A stretch of 64,000 nucleotides of DNA from Cenococcum geophilum (lineage: Eukaryota). The stretch spans positions 18,724,001 to 18,788,000 of the forward strand of contig CP158635.1 of NCBI GenBank assembly GCA_050273025.1. The letters run 5' to 3'. Positions 1-49,449 of this stretch are shown one piece after another. The notes beneath the pieces are model-generated. The model worked only from the letters and a program-made list of their open reading frames with translations. It did not search any database and was not told the origin of the DNA. The position numbers were made by a program, and so were the translations under genes. Every line of letters begins with the position of its first letter. Position 1 is the first letter of the stretch.

Positions 1-3000
1 CGGTAAAAGGGACGCGTAAGCCTATATAATTGGTAGTCTATAAACAAGGATCTAAAGCTAGAGAAAGGAAAGGAGAAGAAGAGCAGCGCTAGTTAAAGTA
101 GGGTTCTTTTTATACGGTCTTCTAGTTATATAACTGTAAAGTTCTGCCAAGTTTTACTAACTAAGTTCTACCAAGTTCTGCTAGGTTCTGCTAGTGCTAT
201 AATACTTAATGAGTTTAATTTATAGCTAGGCGGTAATCTTTTTGCTATATTTAATAAGCTTAATCTCTATAACGATAATAATAAGTTAGATAGCTTTATA
301 CTACCTATTAACTTTACTTAAACCTAGCTTTAACCTGCGTATAAGTTGCTTAATAAGTAATATAAGATATTAGCTATAAGCTACTACTATAACCGTTTAA
401 TATCTGCTATAGTTAGTAGTACTAGTATATATTCCTAAGTAATTAATGTTATTAATTAATTAATCTATTTAGTTTCCGAGCTGCGTTTACTAGGGGTATA
501 AGGTAAAAGGGGGAGGGGTATTATCCTAATAGATATTAGCTACTATAGTTGCAATATCCGCTTAGCGGATATAAGGTAAACTTACCTAGTATTAGCTAAC
601 CCTGCCTAATATTAGCCCGCTATATACTAATTAGCATTACTATTAATTTCCTATAGTGCTCTTCGCATATATTTACCTCTATTTAATCACATTAACCGCA
701 AAGACGTATCTAACTAGCTAGTTATTAGTGGTATAGATATATCTAACGGCTAATATAAGGGTAATAATGGAGGAGTAGGAGCTAGAGACCTAAGAGTTAG
801 TAAAGGTATAAGTATATTCTTTTCCTAAGTTATTAGTAAGAGGTTTATAGCTAACTATTAACTAGCCTATAATATATTAGCGCTATAGTAAGGCGCTAAT
901 TACTATAGCGCTAATATTTTAAATCTTCTATTTAAAACCTATAAAGCCCGTATAAGAGCTTATAATAAGCGCTTATTTATAGCAGCGTGCTACTCTAATA
1001 CTTAGGAAAACCGCTCTAATATTTATATAATTAACCTAGAAGGACCTAAGAGTTACCCTATTTCTTTTTATTTCTACTTTTATTTTTTATCTATTAAAAG
1101 CTTAATAAGGGATAGAAGCTCTTTACTAAGGATATTAGGATCCTACTTAGGTATTACTTACCTTAATAATATTGTATCTAGAACCCACCCTATATTATAA
1201 AGGTGATAGAGCTACTTATCTAGTATAATATAATTAACTATAGGCGTTTATAGTATATCCTAATACCTAGCCTCCGCCTATTACGTAAACTACTTTTATA
1301 TATTACTTAATATAGGCTCCTAGCGGGTTTTCACAATATCCGCACTAGCTATAGTGCGGATATTATACTTATAATCCGTAAATATTGCTTAGTTATAGTT
1401 ACTATAATATAAGTCTTTGCTAATAGTAAACTGTGAGTTTCTATAGTGTATAAGTTATATCGCTTATAAGTATACCTAATCCTTATTAACTAGCCGCTAT
1501 AGGGTAAACGGCAGTTTACTATATAACTGCGTATTAGTTAACCGCTTCTTTAGGTATAGGTTAGTATAATAAGCTTTTTAGGTAGGCGTACTATAGAACT
1601 ACTAGGGCTTAACCTATACCCGCTTCTTATATCTACCAACTACTTAGTATTAACTAATGCTATAGATAAAGCATTACTTATAATATCCGTAGTCTTTACA
1701 TTTTATCGCCCGCGGATATTATTACGCAGCGCGCTTACGCGAAAATCGCCTATATACTAAGGTTGTATATACTTAGAACTACCTAATTTATTATAAGGAC
1801 CCTACTAGCAGCTCTTAACTATAAAGATTGCTTTACCTAAGAGGCCTTTTCCTTGGCCTGCCTAGCTAAACTACTATATTAGTATATTACAGGATTTATA
1901 GTAAGGTATTCTATATTAGATTAAACGGTAGATATCTAGGATATCTATACTATATACTACTACATCTAATATAACTAAAATTTAAATTTAAGACGTTGGG
2001 CGCGTGTATTTGGCGTATAAGCGGTCTTTATTAATATCCGTAAGCGTTATATAGTAGCTCTATACTACTTCTTTAGTAATAGCAGTATTATAGCCGCAAT
2101 AGATTAACTAGCTGCGAATAGTATTATAATAGGCAGCTATCTACTTCTTAGAATTAAAGAAGATAATCGGTTTTAAAATTAGCTAAAGTTAATTAAACTA
2201 TTAGCGGTATATCCGTTATACGGATATTAAGCGGCTTCTTAATTACTCGCCTTCTTTTTAGTTACTATTACTAGCAGTATATAAATATACTAGAGTAGCA
2301 GTAATAGTAAAGTAAAGAGCTTAAAAGTCCTTCTTTTCTAGCGCAGTTATAACCCTTTATATAATCTTTAGCTCTAGCCAATTAATTAGGGGTTTAATAA
2401 CTTATATCTTAGGTTTAAACCTAGCTAGCTTATATATAGTCTAAAATATAAATAGGTCTAGCGTTGTAGTATATATAAACTAAGGCTTATTAACTAAGAC
2501 TAAACGTACTTTAAAGAATTATACGTACGCTATACGGAAGGTCTCTCCCTAATTAGTAAGCAGGTGTACTTTATTAACTACTATAAGGGTAATATAAGAA
2601 TAAAATATTAGGTCTACTAAAACCTTATATAGCTTATTACTAACTAAAAGCTTTAGGGAGATAAGGATATATATATAGCTGCCTATACGGATATCCTTAA
2701 TTAGCTTAGCGGATATTATCTTCCCTATATATAAATAGGTCGAATATAAGATAGCTTTATAATCTTTTTTACTTACTTTAACCTAATTATATTAAGTAGA
2801 AGAATAATAATAATAACCATATTAGGTATAAGATATAGTAGTACTTATATTATTATACTCTTACTAAAAGATATCTTTGCTATAAGTATAAGATCTTACC
2901 GCTTAAATATTAGCACCCTTAGGGCCTTAAGCTGCTCTATACAACTATAGTATAGATATATCTCCGCAATAGCTTTATCTAGCTTACTTATTTAAAGCCT

Positions 3001-15486: not shown

Positions 15487-15859
15487 AGTTAAAGAAATAT
15501 GTCTTGTTATTGATGTTTGCTTGCTTGGGTTGCAGTTTCCACAGAAGCAAAACCACTGGGCAGAAATCAGTCGTCACGTGCATGCATGGACCATGCCCGC
15601 TTGTGTTCTCAGAATTGGCAACAAGCTGCCGTGTTTCTTCCCTTCAGGTTACACGTCAACAAACTCAGATCGTGTCGTGCGGAACACTACAATGTCTGTA
15701 GGCGACCAGCAGTGAATTTGTGCCTGGATCTAGCTACTTAGGCTTCATGTCCGACAATTTCGTTTTGCTTGCCCTCTCAGCTCACAGCAAACTAACCTGA
15801 CTCCAGCTTTTCTGTGCTTTAAAAGGAGCTACTTGACCAAGACTAATTTGTGCGGTGAT
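15487..15859. promoter_or_regulatory. Probable bidirectional promoter between TAP42 and DCL1
   Basis: Head-to-head start codons ~370 bp apart. Inferred from geometry only. Confidence 0.5.
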
Positions 15860-18800
15860 ATGGTGGTCATACTTTTCGATGGTGATGATGAGCCCGAGGA
15901 TTCACAAAGTGTTGACGTACCTGATCAAGATCTCAACGATTCTGACATAGATGCTGATGATTCCCATCAACACGGTCCACGTACATCGTTAGAAAAGCGC
16001 AAGGCGCAAAATGCAATTTTCAAAGCGTGGGCTAGCAAAAAGGCCGAAGAGATAACTGCCAAAGAGGTCAAAGATGCCATCCAACGTGCCGACGATGAGA
16101 CCTTATCCATCAGTGACATCCTAGCAAAACAAGAGTCCAGCGCAAGGATCACGAACCCTAGAGATTACCAAAACGAGCTCTTCCAGAAAGCTAAGGAAGA
16201 AAATATCATCGCCGTACTGGATACGGGCTCAGGCAAAACCCACATAGCTACGTTATTACTCCGCCACTTCATCGACGAGGAATTAGAGCGACGAGCCGCG
16301 GAAGCACCTCCCAAGATTTCTTTCTTTCTTGTACGCACATTCTACCGTTCCTCTGAGCCTAACTAATGCTATCCTAGGTTGACTCTGTGAACCTCGTCTT
16401 CCAGCAAGCAAACGTTCTGCGCTGTGGCCTCGATCATGACGTCGAGGGAATATGCGGCGCCATGGGTGCCCAGCTATGGTCGAAGAGGGCTTGGGATAAG
16501 CGTTTTACTAATAACATGGTTATCGTCTGCACTGCTGAAGTTCTAGTTCAATGCCTCATGCATTCATTTATCAATATTCATCAGATCAATCTTCTAATCT
16601 TCGACGAAGCACATCATGCGAAGAAAAATCACTCCTATGCAAGGTTGGTGGTACACCTCGCTATCTTATTTATATACTGATTCTGTGACTCAATTTCCAA
16701 GAATAATCAAAGATTTCTATCTTGTCCAGACCGATCCATCGAAGCGACCCAGGATATTTGGGATGACGGCCTCACCAGTAGATGCTAAAGTAGATATCCA
16801 GCAGGCTGCTAGGTATAAGGGCCTAGAAATGGAATGACCCTTTGCTAATGATACTCAGGGAGCTAGAGAAACTGCTTCATTGCAAGATTGCAACAACATC
16901 CGACCTAAGTCTCATCAGGAATAACATCAATCGGCCCTCCGAAGATGTTGTCGAATACGATCGACTGCCTACCCCATTCGAAACTCTCTTACATCAAGAG
17001 CTTAAAGCCAGATTCGGAGATATCAGTCCATTTGAGAAGCTGTTTCAAGAATCTAAAAAAATCAGCGCTGAACTTGGCCGTTGGGCGTCTGATATGTTCT
17101 GGTCCTTTTCTCTTGCAGAAGAACAGGCACGCAAGATCGAGATGAGAGAAGAGCGAAAATTTCATGCCCAAAAGGAGGGAAACCCAATAGCAAAGCTTGA
17201 TGCCCAAATAGCTCGTTTACGCGAGGCTGCGCAAGTCATCAAAGACTACAGCTTTAGCACCCCAGAAGCTAACTCTCGCGACTTAAGTTCAAAAGTCCTC
17301 GTCCTTCATAAATGGTTACAACTTTACTTCTCTAGACAGTCCGATGCGCGATGTATCGTGTTTGTTGAAAGAAGATCCACCGCCCGGTTGCTCCATCTCA
17401 TCTTCGGTTATCTTGGCGGAGCCCATCTGAAAAGCGGAGTCCTCATGGGGGTAAATTCCTCAGTTGGAGATCTCACCATCACTTTGCGAAAACAAGTGCT
17501 GGCAGTGGCAAGCTTCAGAAAAGGAGATCTTAATTGCATCTTTGCTACTTCCGTAGCAGAAGAAGGTTTGGATATCCCACAATGCAATCTCATTGTTCGC
17601 TTTGATCTATACAGAACTATGATATCATATGTTCAATCAAGGGGCCGGGCACGGCACAGAAACTCGAAATACCTACACATGGTCGAGAAGGGCAACCCCA
17701 TGCATACTCAGGCGGTACTTGAAGCTCGAAGATCCGAAAAGCTCATGCGCCAATTCTGCCAATCTCTGCCGGCTGACCGCCTGCTGCTTGGGAACGACGT
17801 TGATTTTGAGAACGACATGGTCAAAGAACGTGGTTTTCGTACATTTACTGATCCATCAACCGGGGCAAAGCTAACATATAGCTCGAGCTTAGCCGTCCTT
17901 GCTCATTTTATATCATCTCTGCCGCAAGGCAACGAGGTTCCTTTACAACCAAATTACATCATGTCAATCGAAGCCGGGAAGTTCGTCTGCGAAGTCATAC
18001 TCCCGGATAACTCACCCATCAATTCCGCCATAGGCCGGCCGGCTTCAAAGAAATCAGTTGCCAAATGCTCAGCGGCTTTTGAGGCATGCATCCTACTCCG
18101 CAAGGGAAAATACCTTGACGGCAACTTATTACCAATCTACACAAAGCAGCTACCTGTCATGAGAAATGCCATTCTCGCACTTGACATGAAGAAGAAGAAT
18201 TTCTACCGTATGCGAATCAAGCCCAGTGTGTGGGCGTACGGTCGAGGTGATCTTCCTGTCACTCTATACCTCACAATATTAGATGTTACAAATGGTTTGG
18301 AGCGACCATATCAGCCGATGGGTTTGCTTACTAGAGTTCCTTTGCCGCAGATGCCTCGATTCCCGGTTTACCTCAGGGAAGGAAAGGTCACGGAGGTGAA
18401 GTCCATGTCCTTTGGATCTGGGTTCGACGTTTCTGGAGACATGATCGAGCACCTAACGACATTGACCTTAAGAGCCTACAAAGACATATTCGCGAAAACG
18501 TACGAACACGATCCAACCAAGTTGTCTTACTGGTTTGCACCATTGAGAGATCCGAAAACGGTAGTGATGGAAGGTTACGAAAGTCCCGCTGATTTTATCA
18601 ATTGGAGTGTCGTGCAAGACGTTTTCGAAACTGAGGAATACAAATGGACTCCTGACATGAAACATGAGTATTTGAGATACCGTTTTCTTGTTGACAAATG
18701 GGATGGTGGTCGGCGTTTCTTCTCTGTCGAAGTTGCGCCAGATATGAAGGCTATGGATCCTCTACCTGCGCACTCAGAGAAGTACAAGAAATTCAATGAT

Positions 18801-20724
18801 AGCATTCTCGACTACTCTGTCAGTCTATGGAATAAATCTCGAAAGAATTACTCCTGGGACCTCTCGCAGCCGGTCGTAGAGGCTGAGCGAGTTCCGTTTA
18901 GGCGAAATCTATTGGCTCCAGCGGAAGAAAAAGAGCATGATGGTAAAATCAGGTGCTTCGTGTGTCCGGAGCCTCTCAGAATTTCTGCTGTAAGTCAACT
19001 CTGAGATGCTGTAGCAAAATACTTATTGTTTTATAGCTTCCAGCCCCATTCGTAGCAATGTGTTACGTCTTTCCTGCCATTATTCACCGTTTCGACTCAT
19101 ATCTCATTGCCGTGGAAACATGTGATCTTCTTGGTCTCAATATTGGACCGGGATTAGCGCTAGAAGCCCTTACTAAAGATTCTGACAATAGTGATGAAAA
19201 TGGAGAGGAGAAGATAAACTTCAGAAGCGGGATGGGTCCAAACTACGAACGCCTTGAATTTATGGGCGACTGCTTTCTCAAGATGGCTACATCGATATCA
19301 ACATTCGTCCAGAACCCGGACGATAACGAATTCGAGTTCCACGTGAAGCGAATGTGCCTTCTGTGCAATAAGAACCTCTTCGAAACAGCGATTAACTTGA
19401 AGCTCTACGAGTATATTCGTAGCATGGCTTTTTCTCGGCGAGTTTACCCGCATTTATATCCAGACATTGCTAATAGAATTCAGGCGAACGTGGTACCCTG
19501 AAGGTCTCAAAATGCTTGAAGGAAAGGGATCTAAGAAGACAGGTGAAGAAGTCATCAAACACTCCCTTGGAGACAAATCCATGGCCGACGTCTGCGAAGC
19601 CTTCATCGGTGCGGCCTTCATGGAGCATAATGAATTAGGCGAATACGATCCCAAGAAATGGGACCAAGCTGTCAAAGCCGTAAAAATTATGGTGTCCAGC
19701 GATGATCACACCATGGAGACATGGGCAGACTACCTCAAAGCCTACAGCAAACCGAAGTATCAAGTGGCGGAAGCTACGGCTTCGCAACTTGACCTTGCCG
19801 CGCAAATCGAAAAAAAGCACCATTATCATTTCCGTTACCCTAGACTACTACGATCGGCCTTTATCCATCCATCTCAGTCATTCATGTGGGAGAAAATTCC
19901 TCACTACCAGCGCCTTGAATTCCTTGGTGATTCATTACTAGACATGGTCTTTGTGATGCATCTCTTCTACCGTTATCCCAATAAGGATCCCCAGTGGCTT
20001 ACGGAACATAAGATGCCAATGGTATCTAATAAATTCCTCGGTGCATTGTGTGTTAAGCTGAATTTTCACGGACATCTTCGGCACAACAACGCAGTTCTGC
20101 AGCACCAAATACAAGAGTATGTGACGGGGGTGCAAGAAGCTGAGATTGAAGCAAACGGTTCTGCTGACTACTGGACCACGGTCAGCGAACCTCCCAAGGT
20201 AAGAATCAATACCTTGTTCTATCATAACATATACTTATATAGTATAGTGCTTAGCAGATATCGTGGAGTCATATGTTGGAGCCATATTCGTAGACTCGGA
20301 CTTTGACTTCAATGAGGTTCAGCGCTTCTTTGATCAGCACATAAAAGTTTTTTTCGAGGACATGTCTATCTATGACGCCTTTGCAAACAACCATCCTATA
20401 ACTCGCCTTACCAAGCTTCTCAACATCAATCTCGGATGCTGCGACTGGCGAATAGCCACCCGTCTCTGCGAGTCTACGATCCCTGGTGCCCGCCCTACGG
20501 CCCTTGCTATGGTGCTCATTCATTGGAACGTTATTGCGGACGGTAGTGCCATTTCCGGAAGATATGCGAGAATCAAAGCAAGCAACACTGCTTTAGACCT
20601 CCTTGAAGGACTCCCCCAGTACGAATTCCGTCGTCGCTTCGGCTGTGACTGCGTTGATGAGGAACTCGAGAATACGGGGGATGGGGGGGGAATCGGGGAA
20701 GCAATCGGTGGTTTGGTGATTTAA
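15860..20724 (+). CDS. DCL1: Dicer-like protein 1 (helicase, Dicer dimerisation domain, RNase IIIa/b, C-terminal dsRBD with Zn motif)
   Basis: [85 protein letters not shown]-terminal C...H...CDC typical of fungal Dcl1/Dcr1. Start codon uncertain. Confidence 0.95.
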
Positions 20725-21601
20725 CACTTGTGGAAAATATTCTACACTTGCTGTCTTGCCTCGTGCTGACCATCGTTAGTCTCCTGAGGAAAATGTGAAG
20801 TCGGGATCAGCTACATATTTTAGCCTATATCTATAGTTTTATTCTACGGATGAACTGCGCTGAGCACAAGGGTTACCTTACGATTATTATTTTCAGTACA
20901 CGTCATTACTTCATTTATGACTAGATATTAGGATAGAATATCATTTCCTGGGATTATTCAAATCACGACTGCGTTTTGTATTCGTCATTCATCTAATGCA
21001 ACCTCGTGAGCAACTTAATAAGTTTACATAACATGCTCCTATGAAAAACCACCGCGTTCTCAACTCCTTGAGATGAACACTGGTGAGGTCCCTCCACAGT
21101 AAGAAGTAAAAATAGAAATATCGCATAAAAACGATACTAAGCCAACTCCGATGGTACGGCACGGTCCTGAAACGACTAGGGATCTGGCGTTGAAGTGATT
21201 AACGGAGACATGACGAGCATGCAATTTCTGATCTACATGGCCTGTGGATGATACACCAACAGTAGACTTAAAGCATCCTGCTGATGGCTACCGGAGCCTA
21301 TACTAATTTCGATCAGTATTGTTTCATGATTGAATTGATCCCATGCGCCGCCATCAAGTTGTACACCCGATTTTTAATAACTTAGTTAACTCGTTCAGAG
21401 ACTCGACCAAGACTCATAGAATGACATAAGAAATGAATCAATTAGCTACTCGTGCATATGTCTTACCTAAGGCTCATCGAATCAAAACGTACCTTTTGAG
21501 TACCTAGGTAAAATCTTTGCTTCAATTTGGAGAACGATGCGACTCTAGAAGAGGTCAAAGCCCAGAAGTAATGGTCACCGTTGGCGATAAACAAAGGCAC
21601 T

Positions 21602-24548
21602 TTATTCTTCCTCGTCATCCCAATCTCGATCGATTGCTCCCAAAAGCATCTTCCAGACGTTTCCATCCCAAGGAGTTGTATCAACAATGTCCCTATAATC
21701 AAGTTAGAGATATTAGAAGGATATATCGCACACTTGGCATTGTGAATGGAATTGCCTCGAATACCACGTACATTGGGAGATGTAAGTCTGAGTCCAGTTT
21801 TTGAAGTCGCTCCATTCCTCTCTCGTCATTACCAAAACGGATGAACTGGATTCCCACTTGTGTATCAAGAAGACCGAGCTCTTCGAGTTTGTTAACGAAT
21901 ATCCTGATGGGCTCATCGACTCCACCAAGAGGTCGTGATCCACCCTGCCAGACACCATCCGTAAACACGTAAATACAAATGGAACGCCCCTTGGAAGACC
22001 AATGCCGCAGATCTATGCCCATAAAGTGCCTATGACGGTTTGATTCTAGAGCTCTAGGAAGCTCTGCTCGGTAAGGTTCGAGGATTTTCCCAAGACGTGA
22101 TTTCATGTCACATTGACCCGCAGGTTTTCTCCTCTGTACCTTTTCTAGAAGATGGCGTGTACGTCTCGAATGATGGGTTTCCAGGGAATTGGTGAAGTGC
22201 AGGTCAATCCCATCTGGGTCCACGTGTTTAACCAGGTATGACAACGCGCCAAAAGTCTTCGTCACTTTAGACCAGTAAGGACCCATAGATTTGGAGTCGT
22301 CAATTAGAAATACCTAGCCGAATGTAAGCACCATTTCAACAGCCTTATAAACTTTGCTTACATGATCACGGTTTCCCAGTCGATCAAGATATTCTTTGCC
22401 TGTCAAATCCTTGGTACCAGAGCCCAACTTTACTCTATTTTTCCATTCAAGAACTTCTTCAACTGACAATATGGGCTCCTTCTTTTGATAAGGATTGTGG
22501 ACAGGTGTCTGGCCAGTTGAAGTAGCACTTGGGGGAGTGTAGGGAGATATATATGGAGGAGTAGGGGGGGATCTATGTGGGGGACGAGGAGGAGAGGGAG
22601 GGGATCTATCTGGAGGAGATCTACCTGGAGGGGGGCCATAGTTATCTTTCGGCGGTATACCTGTCCTCAAAAAAACATCTAGCTCAGCGAAATCGACCAG
22701 AGGATCATTTATCTTCCCACCGGATTCGTCCGAGTAAAGTGAGTCTACAAAAACCCGCCCAGATCCAAGCGAGGAAGATGGTGTTGTATTATTTGGAGAA
22801 GTACCGGATTCTGACGTCGTTCCTTGGGGGCTCTCATATGATTCCGGCGTTTGTTGTAATGGAGTGCGCGGTGCTAGGACTGGAGGCGAGAAGATCCGGA
22901 AGACTTTAGGGTACTCTTGCTCTCTCGCATTGATCAGAATACTCCGTGAGCAACTTTCCACCTGAAGAATGTTAAATCGAGATTTGATATTTCCCAACAT
23001 GCCCTCTATTAGTGTGACAACGTGCTCTGTAATGTGGTCCTCATCGAGTCGTCGATTCTTGGCCTCTTTGTGCATTTTCGACACAGCTGGAAGTATTTTG
23101 GTACCATCATGAAAACAGCCGTTGTATTCAGTTTTGTTGAAGTTCGTGATTCGACCTGTCTCTACTCTGCGTAATTCGCGATATTGCTTAACGCCGGACA
23201 CACCTAAAAGAGTCCACACAATAGCTTCGCTAAAAATGCAGCCAAGTGACCAAATGTCGATAAGTGGTTCAAAATCATATGTGAGGGTTTCCGTGGACAC
23301 CCCCATGCAACACTCAGGTGCACCTCTTGAGTTTCAGCAATGAGGCTTGTTTTCGGGAAATGGAATCTCTTACTATACATGGGATTGCCAAATGTTTCTT
23401 TGCGTTTCGGATTTCTTTTATCGCCAGTTTTACTTGCGAAGTGGCTCATTCCCAAATCAGCAAGCTTGAAATTGCGATCATATTTTGACGAAGTGGCCCC
23501 ACTAGTCACTAGGATGTTCGAAGGCTTAATGTTCTGATGTGACCTAACATCCTTTAACCGTTTCGATCTTTCGCCCAATAGAGGGAATTTATGTACATAC
23601 CCTTCTAATTCGTGTATCCTTTTGATAGGTTCGACCACCTTGAACAAACTGCTCCAGAACTGTAAAATGTCTTCTTCGCTTGAAGGCGGCGTTATACTCT
23701 CAAAGTAATCCATCAGATTACCGCTGTCGGCATGCTCCAGTAGGATGTTGTATGTTCTACCATGTCGGTAGGCTCCAAAGAGGGAAATGATGTGAGGCTC
23801 ATGCTTTACCGGTAGCATCATCTGATTGAAAGCCTCTACTTCATTCTGGTAGTACTTTTCAGCATCCTTGGCGAAGTATGTCTTAAGGACGAACGTCTTC
23901 GGCCTTGACCAACCATTCGAGTCCTGAAATGTTGGAGGATTGTTAGCACTGACCGCACGTACTTTTTCAAGTCAAGGACGGAAATTTCCTTACCAGATGT
24001 ATTAAAGTGTTGTAATTTTCAAGCACTTTGACCTTATAAATGACTGCACTTCTTCCCTTTCTCATCTGTATTTTTTCAACAATTGGCAGAATATGATCTT
24101 CTTCAAAGCAGACATTCCATAAATTTTCCCTTACGAACTTCTGGGGGCAAAACTGCCATTGTGCGCTGTAGAATGCCGGGTAGAATTCTTCGATAGGGGG
24201 AGGCCAGTTATGAGGAGGGTGGGTAGGAGACAGGAAAGGTAAGTGTCTGTCGTCGAGACCAGGATATCGAATAAACTGTGTTATATACTCTGCTTTTCCG
24301 ATGAATACGAGGATCGAAAAAACACGGAGGTAGTTCTTCTGGCGGATTTCGTTTCCTAGATTTGGCTGAGATAAGAGTTTAAATATTTTCCCCATCTGAT
24401 TAGCATTAAAATAGTCTTGAAGCGCATAGAATTGTATGAATTTTGCTTCGGAGGAGGAACTATTACTGCCGCAAACTTGTTTCGCTTTGATATATATCTG
24501 AAAAGCTTCGATACATTCTGCGTAACCAGGCTGCTGCGATGTAGCCAT
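21602..24548 (-). CDS. Protein-kinase-fold (probable pseudokinase) - Pro-rich linker - vWA domain fusion
   Basis: Spliced by eye. N-terminal YLRVFSIL..LDDRHLPF..QWQFCP region; kinase motifs GRSAVIYKV, FVLK, NEV, HQNIKPSNILV, KLADLG, SAPE, DIWSLGCIFSE; PPxRSPP linker; vWA MIDAS FLIDDSKSM plus VFTDG, GIQFIRFG and DIVDTTPWDGNVWKMLLGAID. Stop at 21602. Confidence 0.85.
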
Positions 24549-26160
24549 CACGAGTGGCGCGCAACGTATGGAAATCGAGGAAAGATAGTATAGCAATATA
24601 AGTTGCGGGAATGGACACCCTCATTGACGTAGAAGTTTTGAAGAAGTGTGTTTTTGAAACCTAGCGGAGAGCAAGGTCTTTTGCGGATGAAAAGGTGACA
24701 AGGCTAAGGAAGACAAGCAATGAGGGGCGGTAGTGCCATAACCTCCGCTGCAGCAGTGCCGAGTCGTTTGTCAGCCTAGCAGGTGATCATCTGCTGCTGC
24801 AAATATCCCATATGCCAGAGCGCCGTGACGTGTACGTCTAGCTGCATTCACCGGGATCTAGGAAGAACGCATAAGTTGTTTTCATAGCCGTTGGACCGCT
24901 AGGAGCACTTTCAGATGCTCGAAAGAAATTCAAGAACGGGAATGGTAGACTCGTTAAAAAAAAAACCTTGACAAAATAAAGAAATTTGTAGCACGTTATT
25001 CGGATCCTATTCTGGAGTCTTCAAAATCCGGTTAGGGATGCCTCGCAAATAGAAACCTCAATGAAACTAGATTCGACTGCGATCACTGTGACTGGTTACT
25101 AATTTTTTTTTCCTTGGCTTCGCTACCGTAGCCTGACTTAGTTACTATGAGTTAACCTCCGAGGACACTCACCGAAGACACTCACCGACGTAATACGTCA
25201 GTGGCAGAGTCCATGTTTTTCTAGAGTAGACTAAAGACATGCTGAACCTACAAAACTTCGCCTGCTAGGCCTCGCGTGGACGCCATTTCATTGAGACCGC
25301 TGCGGCACGAAGGATGCATTTAAAGGCGTTTTACCTGACTGCGTACGTACAAGGAAAAGGAGAGACGTTGGATTTGCCTTTGTATGCTCGAACTGACCAT
25401 GACATGACAGCCCCGTCCCTGCAATAGCTCACAGCCTGTTCCATATTGCGTTAAATACTGTCTCGCTACTGTCTCGCTACCAGCGCCAAGTTGTGTTAGC
25501 CTCGACGATTCCGCCACTTAAGCCACAGGGTTCAAAAACAGCCATTCAATTACCATATAAACTCTAGACAGGCTTTTGAAGGATTTTAGAGGGGGTATAC
25601 AGCAGAAATAACTAATTGACGTGTACCGTTATCGGGACTACGTACACGTTGGGTCTGGTGAGCGTCTTTAAATATTCTTAGAAACTTGTCTAAAATACTG
25701 TACATGTTTCGTAGCAATGCTTAATCGAAATCTCATATTAGAAGCAAGCCAGCATTGCCCAATAGAGATCATCGTAACCATATGCCCGGCTTTCGAGAAT
25801 TATATCTTTCGGAAGGACTTCAGCTCCTGATGCGCCCTTTGCAAGCCCTGAACCAGAATAAGGGGCCCGAATCTCCTGGTTGTTTCCGTCATAAAATGTG
25901 CAATGATGCACGAAAATCCAAGTTACCTCTAGTTCCTTTCCTACATATATATCATCAGAATTCTCCTTCCTCAACCTGCCTTCTTGCGCCTCTTAGAAAT
26001 CCGTGCAGCTCGACCAGTCCGGGTCTGCAACATCACAAAGCGTCGTATCTAGAGGCCTGTCTCAGCATAGGCAGAGATCTGCAGCGTTGTGATCTCCGAT
26101 CTCAACTATATTAGTGGGATAAGAATGTGGAGCTCAGACGAATACCCTAAAAAGCAGCGA

Positions 26161-28279
26161 TTAGGCTTTATCTGAGCATTTCCCGTCATTGGCAGCATAA
26201 GGACTCGAGCGATCCTTCCGTCTCACCCACCAATAAACGATATACCAGGCCACAAATGTCGCTATCATCACGGGCAGGCAAATTGCCAGATACAGTTTCA
26301 ACCCTCGTAGCTGGAAGACTCGTTTCTGTCGACCATCATTGTCCGTAGTGAATTGAATGATGCCTGTACTCATGAAAGTCTTTATATCCGTTAGATATAT
26401 AGGATTATGTATGGATAAGTTTTGAGCACATATTCTTACCGCAATAGAGATTCCCGGCAAAAAAAACAAAGTGACCAAGGTGATTATTCGCATTGATACG
26501 GTCTCCTGCTTGGTCTTCTCGGCTATTTCATGCATGCTTGTTGCCATAGCATCTAGATTGTAAATTGATCTTAGTGCTTCCTGTGTGAAAGATTCACTAG
26601 CTTGCAGGCCTCGGTACTGCAGAATTCCATAGAGCTATATGCACAATTTTAGTCATACTTTCCGGAATTGAAATGAAAACACTCACCAGGTTCTTACGGT
26701 CGGCCAGAAGACGCAGCATGCTTTCAATCCTCAGTTGCTGCATTCCGAGATCTCTTTCCACACCCAGGATGCGATTCTCAAACCTGGCAATGTCAGTTCG
26801 ACAGTCAGACTTAATCTCCCGGGGGAGGTCTGCAGCCTCAGTCGTGGAACGATAGTGTTCTCTCAGCTCCTTGAGAACGGTAACGTTTTGTTTGAGCACA
26901 AGGAGTGTTTCGTGTGCTTTTTCTTCGATGTACTGAATTCTTTGGAGATCAGTGAATGAGAAATTCTCTTGTTGGCTGGTATTGTCTTCATCTTGGAGCC
27001 CGGGACGTAACTCATTAGACTTCGGCTTCTCGCCCGGTTGAGACTCGGGTGGACCCACCATCACATTCGGCAGCTGAGAAGCCATAAGGCTTGAGGGCAT
27101 CTCTAAACGTAAACCCTGGAAGGGCGAAAATTGAATTTTAGATGTAAAACTCCTTTCTGATGCTGTGCTCTGAGCCTGCGATGAGCTTGAGTGTGGCCTG
27201 GATGGAGGCCGTGGCAATGTCTCTTGGTGACTCACGGAGAGGGTTGGCTGAGTGCGAGGAATTATCGGAATTGATATTGATTCAGATCCTGAACTCGACA
27301 ACCGATTAACAGGAGTAGAAAGAGTCTTTCTGGTGACCTCCTGTAGCCCTTTCTCCAGGTCAGTGATGTACCATCGCCAGTTCTCTCCAGCCCAGTCACA
27401 AAATATCATGTGTGCCGTCAAAGCTGCGGCAAAAGAACGGCTAATCGATTTGAAAGAACCCAGTTGTGACAGTTTTGAAGCCTCTTCTATTCGTTTTTTC
27501 AGTAGCTTGTTCCCTTTGACATTTATCCATACTGAGCGACCTGTTTCAACATCAAATGAATGATATATTGCGGTCTGGCGTATTAGCCAGGGCAAATCTG
27601 CTTGCCCACTTGACTTTTCCACTGACTGTAAGTTGTAGCACAACCGGATCTCGCGACCTGAACGTCCTAATTCAGGCACATTCAAGCCTTTGTCCAGAGG
27701 ATTCAGGTAATTTTCATGTCGTAAACCGCTGAAGTGGAAATCTTGTGCGTATTCTTGCTGCCCGAATGGGAAGATGAAATCCAGAAATGAGGGCATCACT
27801 TGGTGATATGTGAGTGCCAGGGTAAACATGTTGTGGGAAATCCTCAGTGGATCACGGGAGTTCCGAGCGTGTATAAAGCTAAGTGTGTTAGCATAGAAAC
27901 CCATAATATCTGTAGTTTATAGAACCTGACATGAATCTACAGCGTGGATCCGTGCGTGTTGGCTTAAATGCTTCTCGGAGTTGCTCCTTTAGCCTGTTTG
28001 TATTTTCGACACAGTTGGAACTGAATTCTCCGGGAAGGTCAGTATGTTCTATATTATCTGAATTTCAATCGTTGATTGATTCCGGCGAGACGTACCTTCA
28101 TCACCATCGTTGAGTTCCAAGAAATCAAGAGCAGCATGACTTTCATCGTGAAACAATCGATCCTTTTGGTCTTTAAGTCGGGTAAGGTAAGCTCTGAGGA
28201 TATATCCGGAAGCGGTCTGATGCACAAGATTCTGGGGGTATGTCTCGAAGAGCTCGCAAGAACGAACTAATGGATCCAT
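26161..28279 (-). CDS. Fungal CorA-like protein (large soluble N-terminus, helical stalk, two C-terminal TM helices)
   Basis: Five exons with GT-AG introns give an intact frame: DPRCRFIFIHARNSRDPL, CYNLQSVE, RQTAIYHSFD, ENWRWYI, then KTKQETVSMRIITLVTLFFLPGISIATFMST (TM1) and LYLAICLPVMIATFVAWYIVYWW (TM2). Confidence 0.85.
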
Positions 28280-30329
28280 TTGGAGCTAACGGGATATAAG
28301 GGCAGTATACACAACGAGAGTGAAGGTGCATGAGCACCTTCAGTCTCCATGAAATCAGTCTCTTTTAAGCAATATAATGATGCCCCAATAGGAATACATT
28401 CCGTTCCGAGTACGCGCGCAAAGCTTTTCCACAACGTGGCTGTGCAGAAACGGTCCCACGAATATCACTTGGGTAAAACAACACCACGCAACCCCTGACT
28501 TTATTTACCAGAAAAGCCTAGCTTCCGCTCTTGGGAAACTTAGTAGGTGGGGGTTGCGACCTAAGTATCACTAGCTGGATGACGCAGGTCCAGGATATCT
28601 TTCTTCTCACCCTACCGTAATATCAGGGCATCGCTCGCAAACTTTATCATTCGTTAATCAAGGCCTTACCCTTGATAACCCAGGAAGGTTTCGTAGCATC
28701 TGAAACTGGTGATCGCCACTGCATATTTGTGTTTCATAGTTAGAGCCATGATTGGCGAAGTAGACTGCTGTGACCAACTTAGTGTCGCATGCGTTGTTGA
28801 TAAAAGGCGTCCACGTGAGGCGCTGCTAATTTAATCCTAGTTACGTCATGTGAGTTCTGGATGAGAATTTAAAGTACTTGAAAACTAAAATATACGGAAG
28901 AGATTAGGGGGTTCTGAAGTTCTTAAGTCATTCACGGTAATTACCTGGGGTTTACATTGGTTAAATTCCGTGGAAATCCTGTCTTAGATGATAGGAAGTA
29001 ACGGTGTCCCAGTCCAAGCTCAATATTTAGCTAGCTGAGTTTGTATGACAGTAGAGCTTGGATGTGATAGCTGTGAGATAATTAATGTGGTTGTTATGAC
29101 GAAGGGCCGTAAAGTAGAACCCGGGAATATATGCGAGGCACGGTGGTATTTATTTGAATATGGACTATTCAGATAGTGACGTAGCAAAGATAGCAGAAGA
29201 AGTCCGCTGTTGCAATTGCGACCGTTGTGAAAGGGCCATGGTGGGGCTATCTCGCTTCAGCCAATAAACTCTGAATTTATGCAACACTTGATGCATAGAA
29301 AGACACACGTGTTCGGAGATTTAATTTGGAAGCGCTGGATATGAGGCTGAGGATCTTCATACGTGCAGCCCATGTTATAGGCGGCATTGGGTGTGGTAAA
29401 AAATGCCACAGGGGCCGTTACCAGGAGCCAAAACGGCGAAGGAAAGAAAGTCGCACCGTTCCTATTCCCTAGATCATATCAGCTGATTCTCTGCGTTGGT
29501 CATGTCTCGTATATGTGTAAAAGCAGCTAGAGGAAAAAAAGTGAGGAAAGGGTTGTAATATGGCGTAACGCACAGCGCCACTTTCACGTGCAGCGGGAAC
29601 GTCGACGGCGGATGACAAGGCTGTAAACCATGAGAATGTCGATTTCCGTAGCTTTAACCATTGGATACATAACAAATAGTATGAAAAGTCGTGGCTCAAT
29701 ATCTAGCCTAGCCCTAGCTATCCGAGGCTGGAGGAAAAGAGACTTGGACATGATTGGCTCTGGTGTAGTCTAGATATTCCTAGTACTCTGCGGGGCCCCG
29801 CATCAACCATATCAACTACCACGATAACCATACTTTCTTCTTTCGGATATTACTTATTTGGGTGGCTTCGGCGCAGGCTCTTAGGCACAGTATAGATCAG
29901 TGTAGTGAACCTCAATTTAGCTGCCGCTGGAAGCCGGATTACATACTTATTTTACCAGCACCCAGCACCTTCCCCTACAAGGAAATATATTATTCCTCTA
30001 CCTAGGCATCGACCCCTGCTCCTGCGGTTGGAAGACCTCATTCTCACCTACTCCGCAGCATGTGAAAGCCAAGGATCATTGAGGAATTCAGCATCATCCT
30101 ACAAGCCCATATTGCGCGCCCATTTGGAACGTCTGCACGCTTCGAGAAAGCAAGAATAACTGCCGTAGTCTTAATGAAGTGGATTGGCCATGCTACGCCA
30201 TTCTACTCTTTTCTTTAGACTGAAGCACCCAGGCAGACTTCTGTCTAGCAATATAAGTATCATGTTCCTCATCATACTACTGTTTGACTGAAAGAAGAGA
30301 TACCAAAACAAATGATCAATACCAGAGCT

Positions 30330-30971
30330 ACTTCTAAGAACCGCAGCATTACGTAGCAAGTGTTGTATTAATAATCGCCATACGTACGTCTTAGGCTGTG
30401 CAAGCTGCTCCCCCTTACTCGTCTTTGTGCTAGTTGTAAAGACGGTGGCTGTGCTCTTGACTATAGTCGTTTTCGTTGTCGGAATATGCGGAATAGTGGA
30501 AATAGTATCTTCGAGACTCATCACAGTAGTCTTATAAGCCGTGGAAGTAAGGGCGGGTAGTGTGGTCTTTTCTGTGATGACTTTATCCGCGGACTTAGTT
30601 AGGGTAGTGGTAGATTGAGGGAGAGTCATCGTGGAGGTGATAAATGAGGTCTTAAAGCTCGAGACTGAGATCGCAGGTTTAGTGATTGTGAAGACAGAGG
30701 TGCTGGTGACTACAAGAAGCTTGTGATTACTGAGGTAGGCGCTTTAAGCGTGGTTGTGGATCCGATTATTTTTGTGCTTGTAATCGTGACGTAAAATGTT
30801 GATCCCGGTTGGGTGTAGATAAGTGATTCGTGATTCGGTTTTGAATGAGGTTGTGGTGATGAAAGACGTTGAAGCTTTTAGAGCGTGCTTGAATACGTTG
30901 AGCCGGGGATGGTGGCAGCTGAAGCCACGGGAAAAATGTAAGAAGCATACTAAGGCAATTAGATGCGCCAA
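30330..30971 (-). pseudogene. Frameshifted remnant of a secreted Thr/Ser-rich (mucin-like) protein
   Basis: Hydrophobic start MAHLIALVCFLHFS, followed by Thr-rich tracts (TTTSFKT, STTTLTKS, TTKTTIVKSTATVFTTSTKT) spread across different frames. Confidence 0.45.
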
Positions 30972-31647
30972 AAGACGTCTACTATGCTGTGATAGACCAA
31001 TTTGGGCCTTGTGACGTGGAGATCAAAGGAGAGATAAACATTTGGCTGGCTTGTAGCCCAAGACGCCGCCGACGTGGGAAAACCATGCTGCACGTATTTC
31101 CCGAGTGGTGAACGTTGGTAGCGAGAAAATCATCAGTGCTAGGTAGTTGAAGCCGCGCAGTAGAAAGCCTTTTGATCAGATATGGGATAAGCAAAAGGGG
31201 TTTGCTTGCGTAACTTGAGAATCTCACCCTTGGCAAATTATTAGTGTATGGTGATGCCTTGCCACAGGTGGGGTTGATCAAGTACAGAGGGCCGTGTTAG
31301 TCTTTTGGGGAGGAATTGGTCTAGGTCTAATCGACTAAAGGGGTTCGAGGGTTGGTGTGCAAGTGTAATGTACCAATGCCGCGGGAGAAAGATTCGGAGC
31401 GAGCAGTGCCCTCATGTGTGATTGATAGGGGGTAGCTAACGGTAATGCGAGAAGCTTCTGCTACACTGCGAAGGAGGACACACCGCTACCGTGGCGTTAA
31501 ATATAAACTGCCTAACATTTCTAATGCCCCTCTTGAGTTCATCACCTCACACCTTTTCAAGACTTATCGATTTATCCTTCCGCCGAGAAACTCTATTATT
31601 TGTATCTTAGGCTGCCTATCTGCTAAGTTTCCGAAAGTCATTTCGAA

Positions 31648-31997: not shown

Positions 31998-32582
31998 TTA
32001 CCCAGACAATGCTTTCTGCACTAGTTCTTGTGGTCTCCCACTCATGGGAATCTTCAACGCAAGCTCGTGTCCCTGCTCGCTCATCTTAACCCATGTCTTC
32101 CTTAGTATACTGACAATCTTGTCCTCGTCGTGCTCTTTCTCGAATTCCTCAAGTTGATCGTCCAAGAATACTAGACATGCCACATCTTCTAGCACTTGTG
32201 TTTCTTCATCTTTCTTTAAGTCCTCCTTTCTTATGAGTGCTGCCACCCTTTCTGCTACGTCTGATCTATATCCACACTCTTTGCATATCTGTTCCACCTG
32301 TTCTGCCTGCCGCTTCTTAAGGGAAGTGCGCCAGGAGTGATATCCGACTCTGGTCATTGGATAGGAGTCGCGGGGGACCTCCCAGCGACGGAAATGCTGG
32401 GCGTGAATGGCAAGACGAAGGGGTTCGGAGGCATTAGGCGCACGCTGGCCTAGATATTCGGCCATTTTTTGCGCATAGTGGAGCTCGTATGGGACATCTG
32501 CGCCATTCACTGCTATCCTCTTTGGATCAAGGGAGTGTGCGGAGTCGATCGCCGCGATAGCTTTTTCGAAAGGTGTAGACAT
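31998..32582 (-). CDS. DUF4202 family protein (often mis-annotated as glutamyl-tRNA synthetase)
   Basis: IDSAHSLDP, ELHYAQKM, AQHFRRWEVPRDSYP..RVGYHSWR, QVLEDVACLVFL, ILRKTWVKMS. Intronless. Confidence 0.88.
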   Translation of the reverse strand: MSTPFEKAIAAIDSAHSLDPKRIAVNGADVPYELHYAQKMAEYLGQRAPNASEPLRLAIHAQHFRRWEVPRDSYPMTRVGYHSWRTSLKKRQAEQVEQICKECGYRSDVAERVAALIRKEDLKKDEETQVLEDVACLVFLDDQLEEFEKEHDEDKIVSILRKTWVKMSEQGHELALKIPMSGRPQELVQKALSG

Positions 32583-32868
32583 ATTTGGCGGAGCTTTTTT
32601 GTACTGAAATGAAGGCTCTAGGGGAGGGGAGATCCAGTGTAATAATGCCTATAGAAGATTAAGTGCTCAATTAAAGATAAGGTGAAAAGTTGATCATTGC
32701 CCGCCAAATTCAAGCCGCATACAGCATCCTGCTCGCACGGGCCTCATCTCCGCCGATCATTCGTCCCTCCAACTCCACCTCGACTTCAAAACAAGGTCAT
32801 ATCGCGTTCAACCTCACCAAAACCACCACCTTACGCGCCCAATCTTTGTGACTCCGTCGACAATCGCA

Positions 32869-48282: not shown

Positions 48283-49072
48283 TGACTCATGTTCTGGTAC
48301 GTTTTGTCTCAGTTTTTCTTCAGCTCTAGTATACCAGAGACCTCTTTCGCGGCGATGATGACGGGACTGGGGCTTCGGCTCTAGTCTTACAGATACTTGG
48401 GAGATTGCTAGGGCCCATGCTCTGCATCTACGGTTGTCAAACTGCTCTGAGTTTCCAATCCATGGTAACCGGGTCGTTTGGCAACCGCGGTGTGGCGTCA
48501 GACCTTGGGATCTATGACCCAGAAAAGGCAAGTCTGAGCCACGCGACTTTATAAGCGAATGCCCTTACGCTCCGTTTGACATCGATCTTAGAGCGGCTGT
48601 CACTGATAGTTCTGCAGTTATTAATATCACTATATATTTGACACAAATCGGATTCTAGTTGATGAGTGGGTAAGGGCGATGTCTTGTTCGAAATTTGAAA
48701 GGCTTAGCCATTTAGATTTATCGTACCTTGAGTTCCCCCAGAGCAGTTACTGCCTCCAAGGCAAGCATGCTCAGATGTTGAAACGCCGAAAGTGGCGCCG
48801 ACGGAGAAGACGGTATTGGCGAAGATAACAGTGAAAGCGGGCGTGAGGACAGAGAACCTAGAACAGGATAGACATAATCAGGACGGAGTCCTGGAGGCTT
48901 CGTATCACAAGCTCGTTATATTTTTTCTAAATCCAGAAGGCCAACAGGATCTTCTTACCGTGTATAGAGATCTGCAATTCATGAAGTAGTATAAGCGGAC
49001 TCATAAATGGTAAGACTAGCGTCGATGGTTTCCCGCTACCATCTGGCGATCTATTAGGACGATATATTGCGT

Positions 49073-49422
49073 CAGTGGTCGCATGAATGAATATATTCAT
49101 TAAATGAATTGAATATTTTAAAGCCCTTATGAACATATAGGACCCTTTTTGAAGCTTTAGTAGTTATAGAGGACGTACTTAAAAGCAACTAAGTATAAGG
49201 TTTTCGGTATATATACTTATAAGTACGCCGATCGTTCTTATATATATATAGAGCCCGGTTATTTTGACCAGGAAAGTGAGTTTAGGACGAAGATTGAATA
49301 AAATACTATACTAAGGGTCGTGATAAACGCTTTATAAGCATTCCTTATGAATATATTCATATCTTATGAATGAATTGAATACAAGGGTCATATTCCGAAT
49401 ATATTCGTTCATGCGACCACTG
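49073..49422. mobile_element. hAT-type MITE (350 bp)
   Basis: 26-bp TIRs cagtggtcgcatgaatgaatatattc / gaatatattcgttcatgcgaccactg (1 mismatch). 8-bp TSD tattgcgt at 49065-49072 and 49423-49430. Confidence 0.92.
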
Positions 49423-49449
49423 TATTGCGTATATGATATCGATAATTTG

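Follow-up and report, generated by a model that had tools for sequence, protein, structure and literature searches.

A CorA-like membrane protein gene paired with a kinase-vWA gene in Cenococcum geophilum and other Pezizomycotina: a candidate two-gene module

In a 64,000-nucleotide stretch of the Cenococcum geophilum genome (GCA_050273025.1, contig CP158635.1, positions 18,724,001 to 18,788,000; hereafter the window), two neighboring minus-strand genes occupy positions 21602..28279. One encodes a CorA-like membrane protein of the family PF26616, the other a protein in which a kinase domain is joined to a C-terminal vWA-like domain (kinase-vWA). Both genes are real, intact, spliced and transcribed. 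Comparative sequence data strongly support the two genes as a linked system, and we propose that they are one functional module, inherited as a pair across Pezizomycotina. The reading we prefer, with a probability of roughly 40%, is that the kinase-vWA protein is the sensor and switch of a CorA-derived channel, most likely with an accessory role in stress or defense.

The evidence for the pairing comes from loci collected through the vWA part alone. Metagenome contigs from the Joint Genome Institute (JGI) were scanned with the vWA alignment A1, a query carrying no CorA information, and the best 80 of 174 stretches encoding relatives were taken with 10-kb flanks. CorA-like genes in these loci (L numbers) were located by tblastn with 15 CorA-like proteins. 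They were present in 23 of the 80 loci, always adjoining the kinase-vWA gene. Dereplication at 85% nucleotide identity gave 62 groups, 36 of them with a kinase-vWA gene. The CorA-like gene was the direct neighbor in 12/15 kinase-vWA groups having at least 3 kb on both sides, with gaps of 235–2630 bp between the matches, and was found in 4/21 groups with shorter, only partly testable flanks. As controls, groups with a vWA gene without kinase (87.5 kb) had it in 0/7 cases. The remainder of the 552 kb of representative loci gave no CorA-like match. The earlier note, written from the window sequence alone, had set this adjacency count beforehand as the test of a linked system, and the outcome is in favor of one.

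Four gene arrangements were found: 10 tandem with the CorA-like gene upstream (as in the window), 3 divergent, 2 tandem with it downstream and 1 convergent. All-against-all clustering of open reading frames (ORFs) from the 40 loci of at least 6 kb recovered three widespread families, the vWA (30 groups), the kinase (25) and the CorA-like family (15). The next shared family reached 4 groups and was an antisense ORF inside the CorA-like gene. Flanking genes differed in every lineage. The pair is thus kept while neighbors and orientation change, indicating that the pairing, and not the wider neighborhood, is conserved. As for a third partner, small ORFs upstream of the CorA-like gene were common to L031, L033 and L041, and matched no Pfam family.

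Database proteins gave the same picture for named fungi. A profile search with A1 among longer proteins had 91 hits, and the named kinase-vWA hits came from Dothideo-, Sordario-, Eurotio-, Lecanoro- and Lichinomycetes, with about one copy per named species. Their distribution across the five classes was patchy, as had been anticipated. In Melanomma pulvis-pyrius both proteins are encoded on a 68,860-bp contig. Equal contig sizes between partners (22022, 485504, and 21413/6657/31749 for one cluster pair) suggest further same-contig pairs, namely P0187 with P0026, P0196 with P0042, and three members each of the P0137 and P0063 clusters. Eight NCBI models of 1298–1510 aa, all from Sordariomycetes (Plectosphaerella, Whalleya, a Xylariaceae sp. 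and five Fusarium species), carry PF26616, Pkinase and vWA in one protein, the CorA-like part first. Artefact or not, these merged models show same-strand adjacency.

The two partners also diverge together. Over 27 pairs (15 loci, 4 same-contig database pairs and 8 merged models), the distance matrices of the partners were correlated with a Mantel r of 0.90, which 0/5000 permutations reached, so that the congruent divergence expected of a linked pair was found. Both proteins diverge fast, about 50% between classes. No publication on the fungal pair, or on a function or partner of PF26616, was found in literature searches, supplements lying outside the search. The link of PF26616 to kinase-vWA genes is the new element here.

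The gene models were made by six-frame translation with GT..AG sites and then corrected by spliced RNA contigs and raw RNA-seq joints (Table 1). The RNA data over 21400-28400 were contigs of two metatranscriptomes and of one run RNA-labeled by guess, plus one raw RNA-seq run from a strain 95-99% identical. Position 21602 is the final base of the kinase-vWA stop codon and 28279 the ATG of the CorA-like gene. The two intact, co-oriented genes about 1.6 kb apart that the earlier note described are there: both are on the minus strand, the coding sequences lie 1612 bp apart, and neither model (880 aa and 628 aa) has an internal stop. The kinase-vWA intron 23544-23600, within the kinase region, is 57 nt long and in frame. 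Each gene is single-copy in the window.

Spliced RNA of both genes was present in 4/4 runs. Contig pieces of the kinase-vWA gene extended from 21493 (X1, X3) or from 21400 or below (X4) up to 25362-25382, giving a 5' untranslated region (UTR) of ~830 nt upstream of the ATG at 24548. The 3' end of the CorA-like transcript was near 25434-25679 in the RNA contigs. Despite the distance between the coding sequences, the transcripts nearly abut, leaving a transcript-free gap of ~50-300 nt around 25383-25433/25678. No contig piece in the RNA data bridged the two genes, indicating separate transcripts. In the stranded run X21 the first mates were on the plus strand, which fits minus-strand RNA. The kinase-vWA RNA was deeper than the CorA-like RNA in 4/4 runs, contig depth being a poor measure. 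The metatranscriptome contig X3 alone skips 68 nt in the kinase-vWA 5' UTR region (window 25342-25411, with GT..AG on the plus strand), which may be due to antisense or alternative transcription, or to an error of the assembly.

Table 1 Features of the gene pair in the window, and HET-domain genes in related loci (positions of the latter are those of the locus named).
Feature	Position	Strand	Basis or remark
Kinase-vWA gene, coding sequence, 880 aa	21602..24548	-	6 exons; open frame checked
Kinase-vWA exons	24548-23994, 23923-23601, 23543-23374, 23323-22362, 22313-21772, 21692-21602 (including stop)	-	
Kinase-vWA introns	21693-21771, 22314-22361, 23324-23373, 23544-23600, 23924-23993	-	5/5 seen as CT..AC joints in RNA
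Kinase-vWA transcript	21493..25382	-	spliced RNA contigs
N-terminal helical region, aa 1-135	24144..24548	-	family-conserved motif ..RVFSILV..L.D..LP..; pLDDT mostly >85
Protein kinase domain, aa 136-488	22908..24143	-	Pfam Pkinase, structure matches
Pro/Ser-rich linker, aa 489-640	22452..22907	-	pLDDT <50 for 489-627; predicted disordered
vWA-like domain, aa 641-880	21605..22451	-	motifs, weak Pfam, language-model features
FLIDDSKSM, vWA-like domain	22284-22310	-	
GQCDM, vWA-like domain	22101-22118	-	
YVFTDG, vWA-like domain	21954-21971	-	
IQFIRFG, vWA-like domain	21831-21851	-	
C-terminal DIVDT..GNVWKMLLG, vWA-like domain	21638-21691	-	
Spacer between the two coding sequences	24549..26160	-	mostly UTR: kinase-vWA 5' UTR and CorA-like 3' UTR
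CorA-like gene (PF26616), coding sequence, 628 aa	26161..28279	-	5 exons; frame checked
CorA-like exons	28279-28096, 28027-27931, 27878-26687, 26634-26440, 26379-26161 (including stop)	-	
CorA-like introns	26380-26439, 26635-26686, 27879-27930, 28028-28095	-	4/4 seen as CT..AC joints in RNA contigs
Predicted cytoplasmic alpha/beta N-domain, aa 1-287	27299..28279	-	best conserved part; pLDDT >90; dN/dS 0.08-0.16
DPRCRFIFIH motif, N-domain	27869-27950, across an intron	-	
PWLIRQTAIYHSFD motif, N-domain	27551-27592	-	
WRWYITDLE motif, N-domain	27353-27379	-	
Ser/Pro-rich insert, aa 288-397, between N-domain and stalk helix	26969..27298	-	pLDDT <50; poorly aligned in A2
Predicted long stalk helix (aa 398-535) and two transmembrane helices	26224..26968	-	model, CorA fold match
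TM1, end reads FLPGISIATFMSTG	26350-26493, across intron 26380-26439	-	
TM2 of CorA-like protein	26224-26301	-	
HET-domain gene, L053	10938-13004	-	
HET-domain gene, L029	304-2799	+	
HET-domain gene, L051	161-931	-	
HET-domain gene, L067	865-3138	+	
HET-domain gene, L020	about 16240-17250	-	
HET-domain gene, L055	3389-4138		

The CorA-like protein was 94% identical to the database protein P0001, which carries PF26616.1. Its main exon had 459 relatives at E<=0.001 among 3846 candidates, and PF26616.1 was precomputed on all 120 listed relatives, P0001 included; all the named ones were fungal. The window protein is assigned to PF26616, a CorA-like family of Ascomycota, through P0001 and these relatives. 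ESM Atlas clusters named PF26616 CorA-like had scores of 0.91-0.92. The earlier note took both gene types to be expanded in Pezizomycotina, which holds for the CorA-like family with its 459 hits, the kinase-vWA gene occurring about once per named species. The classical CorA family, PF01544, matched neither the window exons nor P0001; it was found at E<=0.01 in 11/38 relatives, the best at 5.7e-6.

An AlphaFold2 model of P0001 (38-sequence alignment, mean predicted local distance difference test (pLDDT) 75.5) had an alpha/beta N-domain, a disordered stretch at 288-397, a helix at ~454-563, a short hairpin and a second membrane helix at 580-613. Foldseek against PDB returned 49 matches at E<=0.001 for this model; all 20 rows shown were Thermotoga maritima CorA with a probability of 1.00, at 7-9% identity and a TM-score of about 0.5 on the target. 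The protein is thus predicted to have the fold of the CorA superfamily, with a cytoplasmic alpha/beta domain, a long stalk helix and two C-terminal transmembrane (TM) helices. The first of these, TM1, ends with FLPGISIATFMSTG in the window, the family consensus being FLPGTF..MSTD. The GMN motif was found at 0/52 recognizable TM1 ends (65 family sequences), and the tripeptide occurred elsewhere in 2/65. A CorA-fold membrane protein without the Mg-selectivity motif, as the earlier note read it, therefore agrees with both the structure matches and the missing GMN.

Conservation was strongest in the N-domain, for example at PW.IRQTA.YHSFD and WRWYI, where W191, R194, Q195, Y199, H200, D203, W261 and W263 were invariant columns of the CorA-like alignment A2. 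TM1 with FLPGTF and TM2 were retained across the family, and the stalk and TM helices had a ratio of nonsynonymous to synonymous substitution rates (dN/dS) of 0.21-0.22. The Ser/Pro-rich insert, predicted to be disordered, is a candidate phosphorylation or docking region.

The vWA exon of the kinase-vWA gene was 93% identical to the database protein P0121. The AlphaFold2 model of P0121 (877 residues, pLDDT 78.4) was folded in the N-region and in the kinase, which a disordered Pro-rich linker joins to an alpha/beta domain at the C-terminus. Within the N-terminal region F77, L80, F92, D100 and P104 were near-invariant in the alignment A3; Pfam gave no family for this region, finding just the kinase. 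Pkinase was matched with E 7e-10 by window exon 2 and with 2.4e-22 by P0121. Against known structures the model matched kinases at Z 20-23.5 and a Foldseek E of 1e-11, with TGF-beta receptor, activin receptor, IRAK and RIPK types at the top by small margins. The linker was the fastest-evolving part (dN/dS 0.79 against L003).

The kinase residues K199 (FVLKTY), E213, N302, DLG and APE were present. In the catalytic loop, SHQNIKPSN at 23516-23542, an Asn (HQN) stands where the catalytic Asp is expected, and the catalytic set of the window kinase is incomplete by this HxD replacement. HxD was read in 57/64 family sequences and 6 were unreadable, so Asp was present in 57/58 recognizable cases; Asn occurred in the Cenococcum type only, where HQN was found in 5/5 database proteins, in the window and in L001. 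The kinase fold had been cast as the switch of the system, and the missing Asp speaks against this for the Cenococcum lineage. The kinase domain was still under purifying selection (dN/dS 0.40 against L003), suggesting that it is kept as an impaired or non-catalytic kinase. From the sequences, the Cenococcum lineage seems to have moved to a pseudokinase-like state within a family that is otherwise catalytically complete. The HER3-type pseudokinases, with HRN, offer an analogy.

For the vWA-like domain, D5, S9, T118, D119 and G120 were invariant in A1 (12 family members). The likely third position of the metal-ion-dependent adhesion site (MIDAS) in this alignment is a Cys (GQCDM), with Ser in most relatives. 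Of the kinase, Pro-rich linker and vWA domain with intact MIDAS in the earlier note, the kinase, the linker and the DDSKS and TDG motifs hold, the vWA domain is probable, and the putative site differs at its apparent third position. Pfam VWA scored E 0.29 for the window exon; 8/12 relatives had E<=1, the best 3e-4, under the 23.8-bit cut-off. Weak vWA-TerF-like matches were found in 2/12 and 4/37 relatives. ESM Atlas gave a feature score of 0.94 to VWFA clusters, and in the C-terminal domain of the P0121 model strands and helices alternate at high pLDDT. A sequence-profile search of PDB with A1 gave chance matches only, none of them a vWA.

The vWA profile had 2919 representatives at E<=0.001, 487 of them at E<=1e-30, and the kinase part was present in 59/63 new top representatives of at least 550 aa. 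One database protein, P0317 (4191 aa), had 12 stretches matching this vWA type and looks like a tandem vWA array. A kinase-free vWA subfamily in L072-L078 (e.g., L073 7276-8622), 31% identical to the vWA of the window, had no CorA-like neighbor and was accompanied by conserved upstream ORFs of no recognized family.

Selection was assessed on three haplotypes, the window, L001 and L003. Over the region, L001 was 97.5% and L003 about 94-95% identical to the window. Pairwise dN/dS was 0.21 and 0.41 for the kinase-vWA gene and 0.13 and 0.18 for the CorA-like gene, at dS of 0.03-0.09. All compared copies were intact, with no stop; 11-74/881 and 11-24/629 residues differed among the haplotypes (protein identity 92-99%), and flanking DNA was similarly diverged (96.7%). 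Both genes are under purifying selection between Cenococcum-type haplotypes, with ordinary divergence. The stretch most rearranged against L003 was window 29200-31300, non-coding and beyond the CorA-like gene, which aligned in pieces at 88-93% with indels.

The observed gene structure, expression, folds, motifs, adjacency, co-divergence and purifying selection lead us to a mechanism in which physical contact, phosphorylation, channel activity and physiological role are inferred. The PF26616 protein would be a CorA-derived membrane channel, probably oligomeric by analogy with CorA, that keeps the CorA cytoplasmic domain, the stalk and the two TM helices. With MSTD or MSTG in place of GMN, its ion selectivity, and probably its gating, would differ from those of Mg2+ uptake channels. 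The kinase-vWA protein would be the cytosolic sensor and switch of this channel. Its vWA metal-ion site may dock on a ligand or on the cytoplasmic part of the channel, and the kinase would turn docking into a change of channel state, most plausibly via phosphorylation of the Ser/Pro-rich insert. The kinase of the Cenococcum lineage probably acts mainly by binding or conformational change, in a pseudokinase-like manner. The output would be a regulated cation flux, and the most likely role an accessory, sensor-executor one in stress or defense, rather than housekeeping Mg uptake or allorecognition.

Parts of this scheme have counterparts elsewhere. Some type III CRISPR systems use CorA-family effectors, in which a CorA-fold membrane protein is a regulated effector, and the TRPM6/7 channel-kinases couple a cation channel to a kinase, TRPM7 being a TRP channel covalently fused to an alpha-kinase. 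Both are analogies only; in contrast to the CRISPR systems, the fungus has no CRISPR or nucleotide-signal machinery. The likeness to the CorA/MIT superfamily (T. maritima CorA, PF01544) lies in the overall fold and the FLP.TF stretch of TM1. The differences are the MSTG for GMN (MSTD in the family), the predicted disordered Ser/Pro-rich insert of ~110 aa before the stalk, the low identity in the structure matches, and the failure of PF01544 to score the window protein.

The bacterial TerY-P triad consists of a TerY-like vWA, a Ser/Thr kinase and a PP2C phosphatase; its predicted function is that of a phosphorylation switch responding to metal, and modules resembling TerY-P take part in phage defense (PMC10542128). 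The likeness is that of a vWA working with a Ser/Thr kinase, and it extends to the weak vWA-TerF-like matches in fungal relatives. In the fungal protein, by contrast, vWA and kinase are fused in one eukaryotic protein with no zinc ribbon and no OB fold, and the conserved partner is a CorA-like membrane protein. A PP2C phosphatase was absent from the 37 window ORFs scanned, and no third ORF family occurred in more than 4 groups (40 loci of at least 6 kb). PADLOC covered only the kinase domain of four kinase-vWA proteins (mad6, MkoA, PD-T4-6 and others), never the vWA part, and gave no matches for two CorA-like proteins. The TerY-P analogy of the earlier note is therefore not borne out beyond generic kinase-domain matches. 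A search for prokaryotic relatives, made by scanning genome contigs with A1, matched 602 patterns, none of which was confirmed.

Plants provide two further comparisons. The wheat protein Lr9 (WTK6-vWA), a kinase fused to a C-terminal vWA, confers rust resistance, and single kinase-vWA proteins also occur in grasses, the fusion having arisen repeatedly (PMC10260399). In the plant proteins the vWA is paired with a Vwaint domain, and the two kinases of Lr9 are in tandem and belong to a receptor-like-kinase subfamily (PMC10260399). The fungal proteins appear to resemble them in architecture only, a cytosolic kinase with a C-terminal vWA. Pfam scans of the fungal kinase-vWA relatives found no Vwaint domain, an independent origin is indicated, and no CorA-like partner is reported in plants. 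The wheat pair WTK3-WTN1 (bioRxiv 10.1101/2024.08.30.610185) is a genetically paired, co-evolving system of a tandem-kinase sensor and a nucleotide-binding leucine-rich-repeat protein (NLR) that forms a Ca2+-permeable channel. A kinase-type sensor with a channel executor is the logic proposed for the fungal pair. The executor there is an NLR resistosome and not a CorA fold, and its function is demonstrated, whereas that of the fungal pair is inferred.

Several observations weigh against our reading of the pair as a sensor-controlled channel. Three of the 15 fully testable kinase-vWA groups (L023, L029 and L053) had no CorA-like neighbor. Only 2 of ~20 named species with a CorA-like protein recur in the kinase-vWA list (Melanomma and Peltula), the searches being incomplete; with so few named species in both lists, many CorA-like genes may work without a kinase-vWA partner, and those with one are probably just a part of the CorA-like family. 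Glonium stellatum has the CorA-like protein closest to that of the window among named species (P0002, 66% identity), and no kinase-vWA of this species was found among the 22 and 91 hits of two incomplete searches. The kinase-vWA proteins of L016 and L014 are close (distance 0.27), and the CorA-like gene of L016, placed downstream, is very divergent (0.63); this mismatch indicates that partners can be exchanged and suggests that one was replaced or that the genes go back to an old duplication. Part of the Mantel correlation is expected for any two genes of the same genomes, and it is inflated by close Fusarium relatives, and the merged NCBI models may be annotation artefacts, the window transcripts being separate. 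Both structure searches with the 877-residue model were filled by kinases and gave no vWA structure match, so that the vWA call rests on the DxSxS and TDG letters, weak Pfam matches, language-model similarity and the strand-helix pattern of the model. With the catalytic Asp missing, the phosphorylation step cannot be assumed for this genome. Finally, a homeostatic role would account equally for the purifying selection, for alleles that diverge only modestly and for expression that is steady both in culture and in metatranscriptomes.

A bolder version of our reading is an ancient immune or regulated-cell-death module of the sensor-executor type, widespread in filamentous ascomycetes, in which the cytosolic kinase-vWA protein would sense danger or non-self via its MIDAS and open a CorA-derived cation pore. 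We regard this as rather doubtful. In fungi, what is known of innate immunity and regulated cell death concerns mainly NLRs and HET/TIR, HeLo/MLKL-like and gasdermin-like proteins. The logic of such a module would be convergent with the type III CRISPR CorA effectors and the plant pairs of tandem kinase and NLR calcium channel.

The main rival is a homeostatic one, somewhat less probable still. Here the CorA-like protein would be a divalent-cation transporter or channel of altered selectivity and the kinase-vWA protein its feedback regulator, with the MIDAS as detector of metal in the cytosol and the kinase or pseudokinase tuning the transport, in an ordinary physiological module with no conflict system. 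The CorA fold with a metal-binding motif in the partner fits this, as do the purifying selection on both genes, their expression without known challenge in 4 runs, about one copy per named species, and housekeeping neighbors (Dicer, TAP42, hamartin, DUF4202). The TerY-P triads are themselves predicted metal-sensing phosphorylation switches (PMC10542128). A homeostatic transporter agrees less with the loss of GMN in every recognizable family member, the patchy distribution with flanks not conserved, the four gene orientations, the fast divergence of both proteins and a sister genus (Glonium) apparently without the kinase-vWA gene.

Less likely, the two proteins are linked without channel gating. 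The CorA-like protein could be a membrane anchor, scaffold or substrate that localizes the kinase-vWA protein, or the two could act in one pathway and stay together for co-regulation only. Adjacency and co-divergence prove shared function only, and conservation in the CorA-like protein is highest in the cytoplasmic N-domain and not in the pore region. Tandem loci have abutting transcripts, and where the genes are divergent a common promoter could serve both; the deeper kinase-vWA RNA in 4/4 runs is a weak hint in the same direction. The retained TM1 FLPGTF and TM2, together with the dN/dS of the stalk and TM helices, argue for a working membrane part.

The earlier note had also raised allorecognition and positive selection, in a het-type locus where incompatible variants of linked genes would trigger cell death once hyphae have fused. 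Linked pairs are frequent among the known het systems, and HET-domain genes lie near some kinase-vWA loci and, as a HET-like ORF, at 56812-58512 in the window. Neither protein of the pair has a HET domain, and there was no sign of deeply diverged allele classes (dN/dS 0.13-0.41, dS up to 0.09), a weak argument from 3-4 haplotypes. With three intact haplotypes at 92-99% protein identity this explanation fits poorly, and we consider it very unlikely. Equally improbable, and already contradicted, is the absence of any functional link, two common fungal families being neighbors by inherited synteny or chance: the CorA-like family is large and missing from 3/15 testable loci, but 12/15 groups against 0/7 controls, a single CorA-like gene in the 64-kb window with none elsewhere in the 552 kb of loci, and an adjacency that survives four orientations while all other neighbors change stand against it.

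If our reading of a sensor-controlled CorA-derived channel is true, the pair would be a new, experimentally tractable two-gene module across five Pezizomycotina classes, with the MIDAS site as candidate sensor, the kinase or pseudokinase as candidate switch and ion flux as candidate output. For PF26616, which has hundreds of fungal members and no known role, it would open a first way into function, and the vWA-kinase switches and CorA effectors of bacteria would gain a counterpart in eukaryotes. Should the role be metal homeostasis, CorA-type transporters would still be shown to be regulated in a new way.

HET-domain genes were found in 7/62 groups and were directly adjacent to the vWA gene in L053 only, perhaps also in L055. 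In L053, with a kinase-vWA gene and no CorA-like gene, the HET gene is convergent and directly beside the vWA end. The ORF that comes after the HET ORF in L029 matches NPHP3_N (NACHT-type) weakly. HET-domain genes might replace the CorA-like executor in some lineages; they are common in these fungi, so their proximity is a lead and not a finding. A 454-aa ORF after the vWA of L023 was considered as an alternative executor and rejected, being not CorA-like (hhalign probability 0.1) and without a Pfam family.

In the window, the gene order is hamartin, GDSL lipase, TAP42, Dicer, the pair, DUF4202, Zn-cluster regulators, asparagine synthase, oxidoreductase, the weak HET-domain ORF and a HAK potassium transporter. 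The Dicer-like gene (15734-20721, plus strand) is convergent with the kinase-vWA gene, just beyond its 3' end, and encodes helicase C, Dicer dimerization, platform, two RNase III and dsRNA-binding domains. The gene-poor interval described earlier was recovered, as no Pfam-bearing ORFs other than the pair were found from Dicer (ending at ~20721) to DUF4202 (32001-32648). Around the pair, the search for mobile-element borders gave just an imperfect inverted repeat of 19 nt and a repeat of 27 nt in two copies, which are probably both due to chance. The HET-like ORF, on the plus strand, is 28 kb from the pair and its domain match is weak (E 1.2e-6). The G + C content was low at 1-3000 (0.29-0.32) and 49000-50000 (0.36), against ~0.47 elsewhere, and these stretches may be relics of repeats or of repeat-induced point mutation (RIP).

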